A stretch of 24,000 bases of DNA from Neiella marina (GTDB lineage: Bacteria > Pseudomonadota > Gammaproteobacteria > Enterobacterales > Neiellaceae), in the NCBI RefSeq assembly GCF_002165625.1, contig NZ_NGNS01000024.1:27869-51868 (forward strand). Reading direction: 5' to 3'. Within the stretch, counting starts at the first letter, position 1; every line of letters starts with the position of its first letter. The translations under genes were made by a program, and so were the position numbers. Shown here in pieces: positions 3,397 through 17,978 of this stretch. A model generated the notes under the pieces. The model saw only the letters and a list, made by a program, of their open reading frames with translations, was not told the DNA's origin and searched no databases.

Positions 3397-4131
3397 GTGT
3401 GGACAAGGACTTATTGGGCTGCTAAAGGACTGATTCTAGCTTTTTGTTTGAATGTAGTGAGTGCATGGGGCAATCAGGCTGCAATTGAACATAGCATGCT
3501 GATGATTGATGAGGTGGAGTTACACCGTTGGTCATTCGACCGAGAACTTATCTCAGACGATCAAACCCGTGTTATTCACCACGAACCAAGGCAGCATCAT
3601 TACAATGGTTGGAGTCTCATTGCTGTTGACGGCGTGACACCGACTATTGATGAGCAGTGGGCTTTTTTACAGAACTTTGAGTCAGCTCAGCAGCAAACTG
3701 AGCAGCGTAATCTTGTCGAGAACCGACTTACTCGCCTGATACAGCCAGCAACGCTTGTGTTGGTGGCACAAACTGAGAGTGCTGCGCACTATCGTTTCAA
3801 ACCAACTTTACAGAGTTTTTTGGCAGAATCTCAGCGCCATTTGGAAGGTGAGTTGTGGTTTGATGTGAAGCATCAGCACATTTACCGGGTGATGATCAAG
3901 TCCGCCGCTCCACTTGAAAGCAAAGCAGGTGTGACCTTTCCCTACTTCAATTTGGAGTTATCATTTGTCAGAGAGAAGGGTTTTGTTTTGCCGGAGCTCG
4001 TCAAAATGCGCTTTGGTGGTCAAGTCAATGGCCTTAATGTTTTTGCTCAAAACACAGTTCAACACTATAAAAACTATCACTTAGTGTTCCCTCCGCCTTC
4101 CTATGCTGAGCGACAAGAGAACGCAAAATAG
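3397..4131 (+). CDS. hypothetical secreted/periplasmic protein
   Basis: 244-aa ORF with a GTG start. N-terminal signal-peptide-like segment (GLILAFCLNVVSAWG/NQ). No family recognised and the SD is weak. Confidence 0.5.
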   Translation: MWTRTYWAAKGLILAFCLNVVSAWGNQAAIEHSMLMIDEVELHRWSFDRELISDDQTRVIHHEPRQHHYNGWSLIAVDGVTPTIDEQWAFLQNFESAQQQTEQRNLVENRLTRLIQPATLVLVAQTESAAHYRFKPTLQSFLAESQRHLEGELWFDVKHQHIYRVMIKSAAPLESKAGVTFPYFNLELSFVREKGFVLPELVKMRFGGQVNGLNVFAQNTVQHYKNYHLVFPPPSYAERQENAK

Positions 4132-4172
4132 CCTATTAATGTAATTTAATTACACTTTTAAGTTGAAATAAA

Positions 4173-4188
4173 TGTGATCAACCTCAAA
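4173..4188 (+). promoter_or_regulatory. CRP-like dyad TGTGA-tcaacc-TCAAA upstream of small ORF 1
   Basis: 9/10 match to the CRP core consensus TGTGA-N6-TCACA. The same motif sits at the same register (86-87 nt before the ATG) in copy 2. Confidence 0.4.
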
Positions 4189-4195
4189 TAAATTC

Positions 4196-4223
4196 TTGAT
4201 CTATTGGTTTTGTGTAATATACT
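4196..4223 (+). promoter_or_regulatory. putative sigma70 promoter of small ORF 1 (-35 TTGATC, 16-nt spacer, -10 TATACT)
   Basis: Hexamers read directly from the sequence. Equivalent elements are in the same place in copy 2. TSS not determined. Confidence 0.4.
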
Positions 4224-4258
4224 TACACCCGTAAGTTAAAAAACAGGAGAGAAAAGAG

Positions 4259-4348
4259 ATGAATATATTTGGTGTTAAAGGTAGCTACAGTGTTGGTCGT
4301 TCTGGTCGTAGCCGTCGTCGTAGCCAAGCTCTTCGCAACGATGCATAA
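4259..4348 (+). CDS. small arginine-rich basic peptide, 29 aa (MNIFGVKGSYSVGRSGRSRRRSQALRNDA)
   Basis: ATG preceded by AGGAGA (8-nt spacer). TAA stop, with an intrinsic terminator 34 nt downstream. Paralog at 4666..4755 with 28/29 identical residues and 11 of 12 nucleotide differences synonymous. CGT/GGT-rich codon choice. Confidence 0.65.
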   Translation: MNIFGVKGSYSVGRSGRSRRRSQALRNDA

Positions 4349-4381
4349 GTTACAAAAGAAAGCCCAGAATCCAACTTAATA

Positions 4382-4408
4382 GCCTCGATTTAATCGGGGC
4401 TTTTTATT
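4382..4408 (+). terminator. rho-independent terminator after small ORF 1
   Basis: GCCTCGAT-tta-ATCGGGGC, an 8-bp stem with one G-U pair, followed by TTTTTATT. Confidence 0.7.
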
Positions 4409-4578
4409 GCCTCAATTTTGACCTTCCGTAGCGACCTCTAAAAACTAGGCTGAAGCTAATCTAGTTTAACGTTTTTAATTAAAGTATTGTTTTAATTGGA
4501 TTATTTAAATTTTTCTCAGTGTTTTTGTTAGGTGATCTATCTCTCGTTTTTATTAATTTTTAATTAAAATAAAAAAAG

Positions 4579-4594
4579 TGTGATTTAGTTCAAA
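4579..4594 (+). promoter_or_regulatory. CRP-like dyad TGTGA-tttagt-TCAAA upstream of small ORF 2
   Basis: 9/10 match to TGTGA-N6-TCACA. Same half-sites as 4173..4188. Confidence 0.4.
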
Positions 4595-4600
4595 AAAATC

Positions 4601-4628
4601 TGTTCATTTTTAGAAATTGGTGTATATT
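4601..4628 (+). promoter_or_regulatory. putative sigma70 promoter of small ORF 2 (-35 TGTTCA, 16-nt spacer, -10 TATATT)
   Basis: Hexamers read directly from the sequence. Register matches copy 1 within 1 bp. Confidence 0.35.
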
Positions 4629-4665
4629 TAAGTTGTCACTTAAAACAAACCACAGGAGAGACAAT

Positions 4666-4755
4666 ATGAATATCTTCGGCGTAAAAGGTAGCTACAGCGT
4701 AGGTCGCACTGGCCGTAGCCGTCGTCGCAGTCAAGCTCTTCGCAACGATGCCTAA
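4666..4755 (+). CDS. small arginine-rich basic peptide, 29 aa (MNIFGVKGSYSVGRTGRSRRRSQALRNDA), paralog of 4259..4348
   Basis: ATG preceded by AGGAGA (6-nt spacer). TAA stop, with a perfect terminator downstream. Single Ser-to-Thr difference from copy 1. Confidence 0.65.
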   Translation: MNIFGVKGSYSVGRTGRSRRRSQALRNDA

Positions 4756-4785
4756 TTATCATCATTGCAAGACCTCACCAAAGTA

Positions 4786-4814
4786 AAAGCCTCGATAAAA
4801 TCGAGGCTTTTTTT
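4786..4814. terminator. bidirectional rho-independent terminator shared by small ORF 2 (+) and recG (-)
   Basis: AAAGCCTCGA-taaaa-TCGAGGCTTT, a perfect 10-bp stem with a T-run on the + side and an A-run (a U-run for the - transcript) on the other. Lies between the convergent stops at 4755 and 4890. Confidence 0.8.
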
Positions 4815-4889
4815 ATGCATAAAGAAAACCGACCCCCTTTGGAACTGCCAAGCTCAGTTTGGCTCTCGCTAAGTGATTGCCTGTTTGCT

Positions 4890-6974
4890 TTAAGCTGATC
4901 CAAATTGGCTGCGGCCAGCCATCCAACGATCGATCAGCGGTTGGATCCGCTGCGGATGTTGTTGATGGAGCTGATTAGCAAGCTCATGAATCAGTGGTAG
5001 CAAATGTTGATCACGAATTAGGTCGGCAATTTTTAGATCGGCCAAGCCGGTTTGCTTGGTACCTAAGATTTCACCGGGGCCACGGATTTCAAGATCGCGC
5101 TGCGCAATTACAAAGCCATCATTGGAATCGCGAAGTACTCCAAGGCGTTTGGTTGCTGTTTTGGATAGTGGCGCTTTGTAAAGCAGCACGCAGTGACTAG
5201 CGACTGAGCCCCGTCCCACGCGGCCGCGTAACTGATGCAGCTGTGCTAAACCCAAGCGCTCAGGATTCTCAATCACCATTAAACTGGCATTGGGCACATC
5301 GACACCCACTTCAATGACAGTTGTTGCCACTAACAGATCCAGTTCGCCAGCTTTAAAACTAGCCATTACTTGCTGCTTTTCCGCAGCCTTCATCCGGCCA
5401 TGGACCAAACCAATGCGTAATTCAGGTAAATGCTCTGTGAGCACTGCTTGGGTATCTTCGGCGGCCTGCGCTTCAAGTACTTCCGACTCTTCAATCAGGG
5501 TGCAAACCCAATAAACCTGGCGCTTGTCGTTAATACAAGCGGAGCGAACTCGTTCTAACACTTGCTCTCGGCGAGTATCAGGTAGCGCAACCGTTGTTAC
5601 CGGCGTTCGGCCTGGTGGCAGCTCATCAATCACTGACGTGTCTAAGTCGGCATAGGCGGTCATCGCCAGCGTCCTTGGGATCGGAGTGGCTGTCATGATC
5701 AGCTGATGTGGGGTGAATCCTTCGGTCGCGCCTTTCTCACGCAGTGTTAATCGCTGATGAACGCCAAAACGATGCTGCTCGTCGATGATCACCAAGGCCA
5801 ATTTGGCAAAGCTGACTTGATCCTGAAAGAGCGCATGAGTGCCAACAATCATTTGGCCATTGCCATTGGCTATGTCATCTAGTGCTTGTTGCCGTTGTTT
5901 ACCTTTGGTCTTGCCCGCCAACCACACCACCGAGATACCGAGGGGTTCGAGCCAATTACTAAAATTGGCTGCATGCTGTTCGGCTAATAACTCAGTGGGT
6001 GCCATTAATGCCACTTGATAGCCGTGCCCGATCACTGATAGCGCTGCGAGTACCGCAACCAACGTTTTACCCGAGCCAACATCGCCCTGTACTAGCCGCA
6101 TCATGGCCTGCGGTTTGGCTAAATCAGCTTGGATCTCCTGCACCACACGTTGCTGGGCTTTGGTTGGCGCAAACGGCAAGGTGCTCAGTAATTGTTGTTG
6201 CAGCTGGGGCTGCGCCGTTAGTGCTGGCGCCGCGATTTGCTGTTGTTGCAGCCTGAGTTGCTGCATGCTGAGGTTGTGGGCCAACAATTCTTCGATGATC
6301 AGGCGCTGCTGAGCAGGATGCTCGCCCTCAGCTAGCATTGAAGCAGAGACGTCAGCTCCGGGTCGGTGCAGCAGGGCAATGGCATCGTTTAATGCGATCT
6401 GGCTTTGATACAGGCCATCAGGCATTAACTCCGGCAATGGGTGGCGTCTGAGCATTTGCAGAGCTTGCTCGGTCAAACCGCGCAAACTGGCTTGGCGCAC
6501 GCCTTCCGTGGTGGGATAGACCGGTGTGAGGGTTTCTTCCACCTGCGGCGGTTCGTCAAGGTTATCGCTAATTTTATATTCGGGATGAACGATTTCAGGT
6601 CCGTTCGGACCGCGTTTGACCTCACCAAAACAACGGATTTGCTTGCCGATGATAAAGCCGTTTTTCTGACTGGCGCTAAAGCTAAAAAAGCGCAGGGTTA
6701 AGCTACCGGTGCCATCACTTACGCGAACCACTAGCATGCGGCGTCGGCCGAATTTTATGTCACATGAGAGAATTTCACCGATGACGGTGCCGGTTTGATT
6801 GGGTAATAGATCGTCAATAGCAAAAACGCGGGTACGGTCCTCGTATCGCAAAGGCAGGTGATAGAGCAGATCCTGAACCGATACCAAGCTAATTTTGGCA
6901 AGTTTCGCCGCAAGGCTTTTGCCGACGCCCTTTAAGTCGGTCAGTGGTAGCTTGGCAAGTGTATGAGCAGACAA
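4890..6974 (-). CDS. recG: ATP-dependent DNA helicase RecG
   Basis: 694 aa. N-terminus ...LKGVG..LA.KLAKI.L..VQDLL.HLPLRYEDRT resembles E. coli RecG. Walker A GDVGSGKT, DEQHRFG box, helicase C motifs. TTG start codon. Confidence 0.95.
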   Translation of the reverse strand: MSAHTLAKLPLTDLKGVGKSLAAKLAKISLVSVQDLLYHLPLRYEDRTRVFAIDDLLPNQTGTVIGEILSCDIKFGRRRMLVVRVSDGTGSLTLRFFSFSASQKNGFIIGKQIRCFGEVKRGPNGPEIVHPEYKISDNLDEPPQVEETLTPVYPTTEGVRQASLRGLTEQALQMLRRHPLPELMPDGLYQSQIALNDAIALLHRPGADVSASMLAEGEHPAQQRLIIEELLAHNLSMQQLRLQQQQIAAPALTAQPQLQQQLLSTLPFAPTKAQQRVVQEIQADLAKPQAMMRLVQGDVGSGKTLVAVLAALSVIGHGYQVALMAPTELLAEQHAANFSNWLEPLGISVVWLAGKTKGKQRQQALDDIANGNGQMIVGTHALFQDQVSFAKLALVIIDEQHRFGVHQRLTLREKGATEGFTPHQLIMTATPIPRTLAMTAYADLDTSVIDELPPGRTPVTTVALPDTRREQVLERVRSACINDKRQVYWVCTLIEESEVLEAQAAEDTQAVLTEHLPELRIGLVHGRMKAAEKQQVMASFKAGELDLLVATTVIEVGVDVPNASLMVIENPERLGLAQLHQLRGRVGRGSVASHCVLLYKAPLSKTATKRLGVLRDSNDGFVIAQRDLEIRGPGEILGTKQTGLADLKIADLIRDQHLLPLIHELANQLHQQHPQRIQPLIDRWMAGRSQFGSA

Positions 6975-16511: not shown

Positions 16512-16725
16512 TGCAGCCCCCTTGCCATCAACTGATGCACCTTCATATTATGAAAACCATTGGCAAAGTAAATAGCAGCTTTGGCTAAAGCTGATTCAGC
16601 GTAAGATTTGTCATCGCAGCAGTCCTTGTTGGGATATGGCTGGCCAATAACGAGCGATGTTGTGACTGTTAATAACTGCCTAATCGACCTTCAGTGTCAT
16701 CAATTGTTACCGTTATCATAATAAT

Positions 16726-16739
16726 GTGATTGTAATCAA
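16726..16739. promoter_or_regulatory. FNR/CRP-family-like box GTGAT-tgta-ATCAA upstream of the GH26-like gene
   Basis: 9/10 match to TTGAT-N4-ATCAA. A TACACT -10-like hexamer at 16761..16766 sits 21 bp downstream, roughly a class II position. Confidence 0.35.
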
Positions 16740-16808
16740 GGTTCAGCTGATACTGATTGCTACACTGCCGGCAGTCCATTGTTGCAAAGTCCCTCGAAAG
16801 GTCACTCT

Positions 16809-17978
16809 ATGAATACCATGCTCCGTTTGGCTCTCGCTTTAGCGCCACTGTTCGTAGTGTTGCTTGGTGGCTGTCAGCCGCAAGTCAAAGAAAACCAAAC
16901 TTCAGCCCCAACGCCGGTGGTGACGAACAAACCTGATCTGCTGGCAAAACTGAAGGGGCAACCATTACTACTATTTATTGGTCAAGATGTCGCAACCATC
17001 GATGCCTACAAAGCATCGGGTTTGTTTGTGGAGCCTGCTGGGGTGGTGACCTATACCAATGCCTACAACAGTCATGGTTTAGCAAATGACGCTGATTGGG
17101 GGGCCGGACCGGTGAACGGTGTTACGACCCACAAGCGCTCACCAAATTCGGCATTGATGATCGGCCTCGCAATGATGGAAAGTGAAGCATACAAGGGGGC
17201 GGTCGCAGATATTGCAACGGGCAAGTTCGATGACAACTTGAAGCAATTTGCGGCGGTGATTCGTGACATGAAAGTGCCGGTGTTCGTGCGTATCGGCCAT
17301 GAATTCGAAGGCCCTTGGTATGGTTATGAACCAGAGAGTTATAAAGCGGCATATCGGCACATTGTTGAGGTAATGCGACCCCTTGCCCCCAATTTCATTA
17401 GTGTTTGGCATTCGGTCGCTTACAGTGAAGAACACAAACCCGCCAACGTGTTGCAGGCCGAGTGGCGTAAGTGGTATCCCGGCGATGATGTTGTTGACTG
17501 GACGGGTATCACTTGGTTTAACGCTGACAACGAACCTGTGGCACAAGCGTTTGTTGATTTGTCGCGAAAACTGAATAAGCCGTTGATGATGGCTGAGACT
17601 GCGCCGATGGGCTATGACTTAGGGCGGGGAACGCTAGGTCATGTGGTCAATGGTGACGATTTTAAAGCGGGCGATGTCATTAAGAACATCAATGGTGATG
17701 AAATTTGGCAAGCTTGGTTTGAGCCAACGCTGGCATTCATCGAAAAGAACCGCGATGTTATCTACTCCCTTTGCTACATCAACACGCACTGGGATTTACA
17801 GCCGATGTGGCGAGCAGATACCGAAACAGGTCAGTATCAAGGACTCTATTGGGGCGATTCCCGCGCCGAAGCAAACTCACAAATCGCCGCTCGTTGGGCG
17901 GCAGAAATCAAGACCGACAAATGGCTACAAGTTCCGTTAACTGATTGGCACGCTTGGATGCCAATGCACGGCAACTAA
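16809..17978 (+). CDS. lipoprotein, glycoside hydrolase family 26-like (beta-mannanase-like TIM barrel)
   Basis: From the ATG at 16809: MNTMLRLALALAPLFVVLLGGC lipobox. VRIGHEFEGPWYGY resembles the GH26 acid/base motif (R.HE.NG.WFWWG). MMAETAP is a candidate nucleophile strand. AAAGG SD. The TTG at 16779 in the track looks like an extension. Confidence 0.6.
   Translation: MNTMLRLALALAPLFVVLLGGCQPQVKENQTSAPTPVVTNKPDLLAKLKGQPLLLFIGQDVATIDAYKASGLFVEPAGVVTYTNAYNSHGLANDADWGAGPVNGVTTHKRSPNSALMIGLAMMESEAYKGAVADIATGKFDDNLKQFAAVIRDMKVPVFVRIGHEFEGPWYGYEPESYKAAYRHIVEVMRPLAPNFISVWHSVAYSEEHKPANVLQAEWRKWYPGDDVVDWTGITWFNADNEPVAQAFVDLSRKLNKPLMMAETAPMGYDLGRGTLGHVVNGDDFKAGDVIKNINGDEIWQAWFEPTLAFIEKNRDVIYSLCYINTHWDLQPMWRADTETGQYQGLYWGDSRAEANSQIAARWAAEIKTDKWLQVPLTDWHAWMPMHGN

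Follow-up and report, generated by a model that had tools for sequence, protein, structure and literature searches.

A tandem pair of small-protein genes with CRP-type promoter boxes beside recG in Neiella marina

Two 90-nucleotide (nt) open reading frames (ORFs) lie in tandem beside recG in a 24,000-nt stretch of Neiella marina DNA (contig NZ_NGNS01000024.1, positions 27,869 to 51,868), which is called the window below. Comparison with related sequences gives high confidence that both are genuine translated small-protein genes under purifying selection on the encoded peptide, and they define a small-protein family that had not been described before and is known to date from Echinimonadaceae alone (Neiella, Echinimonas and uncultured relatives). 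Each ORF encodes 29 amino acids (aa), the shared peptide being MNIFGVKGSYSVGR(S/T)GRSRRRSQALRNDA. Each unit measures ~180 nt and consists of a sigma-70 promoter, a ~30-nt 5′ untranslated region (UTR) with a Shine-Dalgarno (SD) sequence, an ORF of 25–30 codons and an intrinsic terminator. In addition, the promoters carry boxes of the type bound by the cAMP-CRP complex, at positions that suggest repression.

A preliminary description of this DNA had placed the two ORFs at 4259..4348 and 4666..4755 with a 29-aa product, and had given each unit an AGGAGA SD sequence with a 6–8 nt spacer, a promoter and a terminator of its own. The ORFs and the SD sequences of both units were recovered as described, and the promoter and terminator of each unit were found again by scanning, folding, direct reading and conservation in orthologues. 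The parts are as follows, with transcription starts inferred from the promoter hexamers alone.

4173..4188, plus strand: CRP-type box of unit 1, TGTGATCAACCTCAAA, centred ~49.5 bp upstream of the inferred transcription start
4196..4223, plus strand: sigma-70 promoter of unit 1, TTGATC-16-TATACT, found by promoter scan
4245..4250, plus strand: SD sequence AGGAGA of ORF 1, 8 nt to the ATG, read from the sequence
4259..4348, plus strand: mini-gene 1, 90 nt, 29 aa, MNIFGVKGSYSVGRSGRSRRRSQALRNDA
4381..4406, plus strand: intrinsic terminator of unit 1, hairpin 4381-4401 and T-run, found by scan
4579..4594, plus strand: CRP-type box of unit 2, TGTGATTTAGTTCAAA, centred ~48.5 bp upstream of the inferred transcription start
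4601..4628, plus strand: promoter of unit 2, weak −35 TGTTCA, 16 bp, −10 TATATT, read by eye
4654..4659, plus strand: SD sequence AGGAGA of ORF 2, 6 nt to the ATG, read from the sequence
4666..4755, plus strand: mini-gene 2, 90 nt, 29 aa, MNIFGVKGSYSVGRTGRSRRRSQALRNDA, nucleotides 100% identical to the N. litorisoli orthologue
4756..4784, plus strand: 3′ UTR of unit 2 with conserved, predicted-unpaired CCUCACCAA
~4785..4814, plus strand: intrinsic terminator of unit 2, main hairpin on folding, missed by the terminator scan
4140..4154, no strand: perfect palindrome TGTAATTTAATTACA, a candidate binding site present upstream of unit 1 only

The hexamers of unit 1 are conserved or improved in orthologues (for example TTGATA/TATAAT), and the promoter of unit 2 is conserved in N. 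litorisoli, N. holothuriorum and contig L009. Compensatory changes between species support the terminator of unit 2, which faces the 3′ end of recG and could be bidirectional.

Selection on the peptide and spread of the family

Data from the comparison of the two copies showed a strongly uneven pattern of substitution. ORF 1 and ORF 2 differ at 12 nt, 11 of which are synonymous third-position changes and one a first-position change (TCT/ACT, Ser/Thr), exactly as the preliminary description had counted. By the Nei-Gojobori method the nonsynonymous divergence (dN) is 0.015 and the synonymous divergence (dS) 0.96, giving a dN/dS of ~0.02. The same tendency was seen in contig L009, where the two copies differ at 10 nt, all ten of them synonymous third-position changes, and encode identical peptides. 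The family as now collected comprises 14 copies in seven genomes or contigs, three uncultured relatives included; in every copy the frame, the ATG and an SD sequence 5–8 nt upstream are intact. Counts of variable columns at the first, second and third codon positions are 5/2/19 for the named species (six copies), 7/6/23 for the Neiella type (nine copies) and 1/1/5 for Echinimonas (three copies). Comparison of orthologues had been proposed as a check on the coding claim, and both the maintained frame and the third-position bias hold across them.

The peptide itself is hydrophilic, with 7 basic residues of 29, many Ser and Gly, no Cys and no membrane helix. Residues 1–21 align without gaps, so that the arginine cluster lies at a fixed distance from the N-terminal motif. 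M1, N2, F4, G5, V6 and R19–R21 are invariant throughout the family, and the tail beyond RRR is variable, comprising 4 to 9 residues. Codon choice is shifted in the direction that had been claimed: the 12 Arg codons are 8 CGT and 4 CGC, against a background frequency of 0.18 for CGT in the window's 20 long ORFs, and 6 of the 8 Gly codons are GGT, against 0.32. An antisense ORF in the same register is also open, and was rejected as a gene because nearly every variable site alters its amino acids. In-frame upstream extensions of the mini-gene ORFs are not conserved among copies.

Comparison between species further indicates that the units are autonomous, since promoter, UTR and terminator are kept while the spacer between units is only 45–54% identical. 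Within N. marina, the two units form a direct repeat with a period of 407 bp. Their SD and ORF blocks (4240-4348 and 4647-4755) are 82% identical and their terminator blocks 83%, whereas the spacer contains no sequence that can be aligned between the copies, in line with the strong divergence outside the copies that had been noted before.

Members of the family were found by two routes. A DNA pattern scan with a degenerate MNIFGVKGxY pattern, run on one genome per species for 185,579 species, matched only N. litorisoli and N. holothuriorum, plus three chance matches. Both species carry two tandem copies at the same locus. A match judged to be due to chance lies in a metagenome-assembled genome of Vulcanimicrobiota (L001, 1123-1239), where an ORF of 38 aa begins MNIFGVKGSY and the rest is unrelated. 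The scan was not exhaustive, as it missed Echinimonas agarilytica although the sequence of this species fits the pattern. Further loci were collected by walking outward through the closest RecG proteins. Contig L009 (RecG 85% identical) has two copies and L010 (80%) has one, beside an insertion sequence (IS). In E. agarilytica (L011, RecG 75%; L006 is the same species) there are three tandem copies of 30 aa, MNIFGVKGSYSSGYGRRSRRRHTVVVQQE(G/S), and none of the three (5166-6055) is called as a gene in the stored annotation of the NCBI contig. L013 (RecG 74%) carries two divergent copies, MNVFGVSSVGSSYSRGSRRRRSVAR and MNIFGVSKAGAGYTRSSRRRRGHIVRSDV, on the minus strand at 5247-5330 and 5560-5650. 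All copies, one to three in tandem, lie downstream of recG.

The mini-gene is absent from the examined contigs L014, L015 and L017 (~70% RecG identity), in which synteny differs; L016 (RecG 74%) stops ~70 nt past recG and is uninformative on its presence. In L017, the interval between recG and yiiD holds instead a ferritin/Dps-like (PF00210) gene and a dksA/traR-like gene. In the metagenomic L010, an IS with a DDE_Tnp_1 transposase and a 55-aa gene fragment (3980-5175) replace the hypothetical gene and the first copy; on inspection, the fragment looks like the C-terminal end of an ABC-transporter ATPase.

Searches of general collections did not extend the family. A profile hidden Markov model search of 1.84 billion representative proteins matched the family alone. 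The peptide has no family match in Pfam (to E 10), NCBIfam or PHROGs, a family-profile search of the PDB, ribosomal chains included, returned nothing ribosome-related at E ≤ 10, and tblastn against plasmids and phages found no homologue. Two pattern scans of JGI metagenomes gave none or chance matches. Rfam has no family match, with only sub-threshold terminator-like matches at E 0.15–0.6, and a full-text literature search found the peptide sequence in no indexed paper. Restriction to Echinimonadaceae is nevertheless provisional, given that the capped pattern scans missed E. agarilytica. The preliminary description had taken Vibrionaceae as the taxonomic setting, which was wrong: N. marina belongs to Alteromonadales, Echinimonadaceae. 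The family is new in sequence and belongs to the known class of stand-alone bacterial micro-protein genes.

Promoters and CRP-type boxes

All 14 copies have a −10 hexamer with 4–6 of 6 matches to TATAAT (TATACT, TATAAT, TATATT, TATAGT, TATCAT or TATGAT), and 16–17 bp before it a −35-like hexamer (TTGATC, TTGATA, TTGAAA or GTGACG, and the weak TGTTCA in Neiella unit 2). Every one of these promoters also bears a box of the form AA(A/G)TGTGA-N6-TC(A/T/G)(A/C)(A/T), whose left half matches the CRP consensus perfectly. Of the 22 positions of the CRP consensus, the box of unit 1 matches 16 and the eight copies that were scored match 14–16; by our own count the lac site reaches 15 of 22. The core TGTGA-N6-TCA occurs three times in the 24-kb window, and two of these are the boxes of the two units. 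The third (16725-16738, TGTGATTGTAATCA) lies ~40 nt before an ORF at 16779..17978, which encodes 399 aa without an NCBIfam match and may be another gene with a CRP-type box.

Measured from the −10 hexamer, the boxes of Neiella, L010 and L013 are centred at about −48.5 or −49.5. Each L013 copy has a further box that is close to perfect (TGTGACTATCATCACA and TGTGATTATGATCACG), whose centre lies at −10.5 and whose spacer contains the −10 hexamer, and the two boxes of each copy are 38–39 bp apart. Each of the three Echinimonas copies has only one box, with its centre at −28.5 and a left half that also serves as the −35 hexamer. The box of Echinimonas is thus shifted by 21 bp, or two helical turns, relative to that of Neiella. 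Activation by CRP canonically requires sites centred at −41.5, −61.5 and the like, and sites on the −10 or −35 hexamer are repressor positions. Because the boxes adjoin the −35 and −10 hexamers or lie across them, and because core elements this close to consensus need no activator, repression is more likely than activation. With moderate-to-low confidence, we suggest negative control by cAMP-CRP or a close paralogue. An activation geometry could be drawn through a weaker −10 lying 13 nt downstream, which would put boxes at −41.5 and −61.5. This alternative was rejected, since all 14 copies have the TATAAT-like −10 with a −35 at 16–17 bp, and this −10 is exactly where the L013 boxes lie. An earlier expectation had been induction in starvation or stationary phase; the box positions possibly fit the reverse better, namely repression, with expression when glucose is plentiful.

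Proposed function and competing explanations

In accordance with these observations, we propose that the two ORFs are independently transcribed and translated genes for a small basic protein. Transcription would be controlled by cAMP-CRP or a close CRP-family factor through the TGTGA-N6-TCA boxes, as motif and geometry suggest, most likely by repression, and the peptide would then be made at low cAMP, during growth on a preferred carbon source. Multi-copy retention, codon choice (CGT, GGT, GTA/GTT) and slow synonymous evolution argue that expression would be high and that the role would be dosage-dependent and stoichiometric, switched by carbon status. One to three copies appear to have been retained since before the split of Neiella and Echinimonas. 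The peptide would act in trans, which is the weakest step of the proposal: the invariant hydrophobic N-terminus MN(I/V)FGV would give specificity, and the RRR cluster (19–21) would contact a polyanion (RNA or ribosome, DNA) or an acidic or phosphate-binding protein surface. Taken together, conserved autonomous genes under CRP control for a trans-acting basic peptide form the best explanation at hand, and we give it an even chance of being right.

Several points weigh against this proposal. The factor that binds TGTGA-N6-TCA is named from the motif alone and the sign of regulation is uncertain; moreover, we know of no well-known precedent for a CRP box centred at −49. Nothing in the sequence singles out a partner for the peptide, whose function is inferred only, and 7 basic residues of 29 is below what is typical of ribosomal micro-proteins. 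Finally, unit 2 is so highly conserved that its RNA may have a function as well.

This last point deserves detail. Between N. marina and N. litorisoli (L002), unit 2 (within 4567-4817) is 97.9% identical over 236 nt: 95% in the 5′ region, 90 of 90 nt in the ORF and 98% in the 3′ UTR. Identity is lower elsewhere, at 87% for unit 1 (from its box through its terminator), 54% for the spacer and 82–88% for the flanking genes, recG included. The proportion of synonymous differences (pS) is 0.45–0.77 in the flanking genes and 0–0.25 in the mini-genes, and in the unit 2 ORF none of ~20 synonymous sites has changed. In the comparison with N. holothuriorum, too, no other DNA of the neighbourhood is as well conserved as unit 2 (84% against ~76%). 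These data suggest extra constraint at the nucleotide level, for which selection on the protein alone is not sufficient. The preliminary description had concluded that selection acts on the protein and not on an RNA. The first part stands, with 14 intact copies and variation concentrated at third positions, whereas the second is too strong for copy 2, since its promoter, UTRs and synonymous sites are far more conserved than the flanking genes.

One explanation is that the ~180-nt transcript, at least that of Neiella unit 2, is a base-pairing small RNA (sRNA) besides coding for the peptide. The frozen synonymous sites speak for it, as does a predicted-unpaired CCUCA(C/U)CAA kept in all Neiella copy-2 units immediately 5′ of the strong terminator with its 7-U tail; CCUCACCAA is thus a possible RNA-level element specific to Neiella copy 2. 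Known CRP-repressed transcripts of 109–306 nt also code for proteins of 15–29 aa. However, the units of Neiella, Echinimonas and L013 have no common non-coding motif, and only the peptide and the promoter architecture are kept across the genera. A conserved RNA structure was sought and rejected: RNAalifold on nine units gave a covariation term of −1.07, with compensatory pairs in the terminator only, there is no Rfam match, and in single-sequence folding unit 1 had a z-score of −0.28 and unit 2 one of −2.74, to which its terminator contributed most. A more highly expressed copy, with strong codon bias and a constrained promoter and UTRs, could also show such conservation. We therefore keep a second, RNA-level function as an improbable but serious rival or addition for Neiella unit 2, not as the core function of the family. 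A bolder combination, in which an abundant, CRP-repressed cofactor of the translation or transcription machinery works through MNIFGV...RRR and the Neiella unit-2 transcript also base-pairs as an sRNA, is a long shot; if true, it would add a new family of dual-function RNAs, kept as tandem ‘sibling’ genes.

The run of arginine codons, with R19–R21 invariant, and a terminator soon past the stop codon also recall a cis-acting leader or arrest peptide, in which ribosome progress over the arginine codons would control termination at the hairpin 31–34 nt downstream, as an attenuator that senses arginine. Such a leader needs a target, and none lies downstream: unit 2 has its own promoter and recG is convergent in every genome. 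Furthermore, six N-terminal residues are invariant as amino acids despite synonymous change, anywhere from 4 to 9 codons separate RRR from the stop, and the 3′ UTR lacks conservation. Arginine is specified by the common codons CGT and CGC, and a conserved alternative anti-terminator helix was not found. We regard this explanation as very unlikely. Much the same holds for a ribosome factor of the ArfA/ArfT type, to which we give hardly any credence. The Neiella peptide VKGSYSVGRSGRSRRR recalls the KGKGS(Y) motif of ArfA and the basic tail that binds the mRNA channel, and ArfT is likewise tiny (40 aa), lineage-restricted and formerly unannotated. This is the single ribosome-related resemblance that bears on the ribosome or nucleic-acid association which the preliminary description had suggested. 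The similarity is, however, not significant (BLASTP against E. coli ArfA gave E = 1), Pfam has no match at E ≤ 10, and the PDB family profile finds nothing ribosome-related and no ArfA. KGSY occurs only in Neiella and Echinimonas, the L013 copies having SKAG and SSVG, so the motif is not family-wide. In addition, no segment is comparable to the ArfA residues 15–31 that contact release factor RF2, and the genes have a normal stop codon with the terminator outside the ORF, ~20–36 nt past the stop in all copies. An ArfA/ArfT identity was rejected on these grounds.

Finally, small-peptide genes in tandem are typical of type I toxin loci, bacteriocins and precursor loci of ribosomally synthesized and post-translationally modified peptides, and the intergenic repeats of ~400 bp, with a conserved N-terminus followed by a variable C-terminal tail, could be read as one of these. 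Against this, the peptide is hydrophilic without membrane helix or Cys, the promoter scan found no antisense (minus-strand) promoter, the 5′ UTR is short, and tblastn found no homologue on plasmids or phages. Next to the pair lie yihY-dtd-yiiD and gmk-spoT-trmH-recG, with no genes for modification, export or immunity nearby. This explanation is extremely improbable.

Neighbourhood and relation to known systems

The pair lies in a 758-bp gap (4132..4889) between a hypothetical gene (3397..4131) and recG (4890..6974, minus strand). The gap is AT-rich, as had been described, with a GC content of 0.25–0.40 against ~0.49 across the window. Upstream lie yihY, dtd, a methyltransferase gene and yiiD; downstream, the gmk-spoT-ridA-trmH-recG block is convergent with the mini-genes, and the last mini-gene unit is convergent with recG in every genome carrying the family. 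The hypothetical protein encoded upstream (3397-4131; 244 aa) is 100% identical to ‘hypothetical protein [Neiella marina]’. Its homologues (L002, L005, L006, L011), found so far only in Neiella and Echinimonas, have 200–256 aa, no family match and, by inspection, an apparent N-terminal signal sequence, and the gene adjoins the mini-genes wherever the context is complete. The palindrome TGTAATTTAATTACA lies shortly past the stop codon of this gene. An identical 15-mer precedes copy 1 in N. litorisoli, N. holothuriorum and Echinimonas agarilytica, where the surrounding DNA has diverged. A related TGTAA-N5-TTACA (4213-4227) overlaps the −10 hexamer of unit 1.

Comparative evidence (14 copies, dN/dS ~0.02) makes this a new micro-protein family, and it shows that genes of fewer than 30 codons are still overlooked or unnamed in marine Gammaproteobacteria. 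Its general impact is limited for now by the narrow taxonomy; its notable features are the CRP-type boxes at repressor positions and the unusually frozen second copy.

Different kinds of known systems share some of these features. Tiny basic ribosome-associated proteins of 25–45 aa include Sra/bS22-type proteins, Thx and bL36. The Neiella peptide is similar in size and positive charge, and its codon use and copy number suggest abundance, but it matches no PDB chain, has a lower charge density (7/29) and a hydrophobic N-terminus. Like ArfA (PF03889) and ArfT, it is very small, basic, lineage-restricted and easily missed by annotation, and the Neiella copies carry KGSY followed by a basic tail; unlike them, it has no significant similarity, no family-wide motif, no release-factor-binding segment and no non-stop mRNA design. 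Tandem ‘sibling’ small genes are known from the OmrA/OmrB and PrrF1/PrrF2 sRNAs and the ldr/ibs type I toxin repeats. The units described here are likewise tandem, ~400 bp long, long-maintained and equipped with their own promoter and terminator, but selection is clearly on the peptide, which is not hydrophobic or toxin-like, and an antisense partner was not detected.

The closest parallel in regulatory logic is offered by CRP-repressed small transcripts that encode micro-proteins, namely Spot 42/SpfP (15 aa) and AzuCR/AzuC (28 aa) in E. coli and VcdRP/VcdP (29 aa) in Vibrio cholerae. In common with these, each Neiella unit is a short, free-standing transcription unit that has a promoter and a Rho-independent terminator to itself, an ORF within the range of 15–29 codons and a CRP-type operator in the promoter, the last being predicted here from the motif, and the repression suggested for the Neiella genes follows the same logic. 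The Neiella genes differ in being tandem, and their peptide is cationic rather than amphipathic or hydrophobic. VcdP has the same length of 29 aa and also comes from a marine gammaproteobacterium, and was considered as an identity for the peptide. Its N-terminus, MNKGLSSAMFWNQ, which we reconstructed from oligonucleotides KPO-2090 and KPO-2330 of the VcdRP paper, is hydrophobic and shares only ‘MN’ with the strongly cationic Neiella peptide; with no sequence similarity between the two, this identity was rejected. The VcdRP transcript, of 306 nt, has its ORF at 104-193 and its seed of four cytosines at 223-232, and is encoded between vc2278 and vc2279. A Neiella unit has ~180 nt, neither of the two 3′ UTRs contains CCCC, and the locus lies beside recG. 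Tandem autonomous copies, CRP-type operators and frozen synonymous sites nevertheless recall the small number of CRP-repressed small-protein and dual-function RNAs known to tune carbon metabolism, and hence the locus offers a ready test case for such regulation beyond enterics and vibrios.

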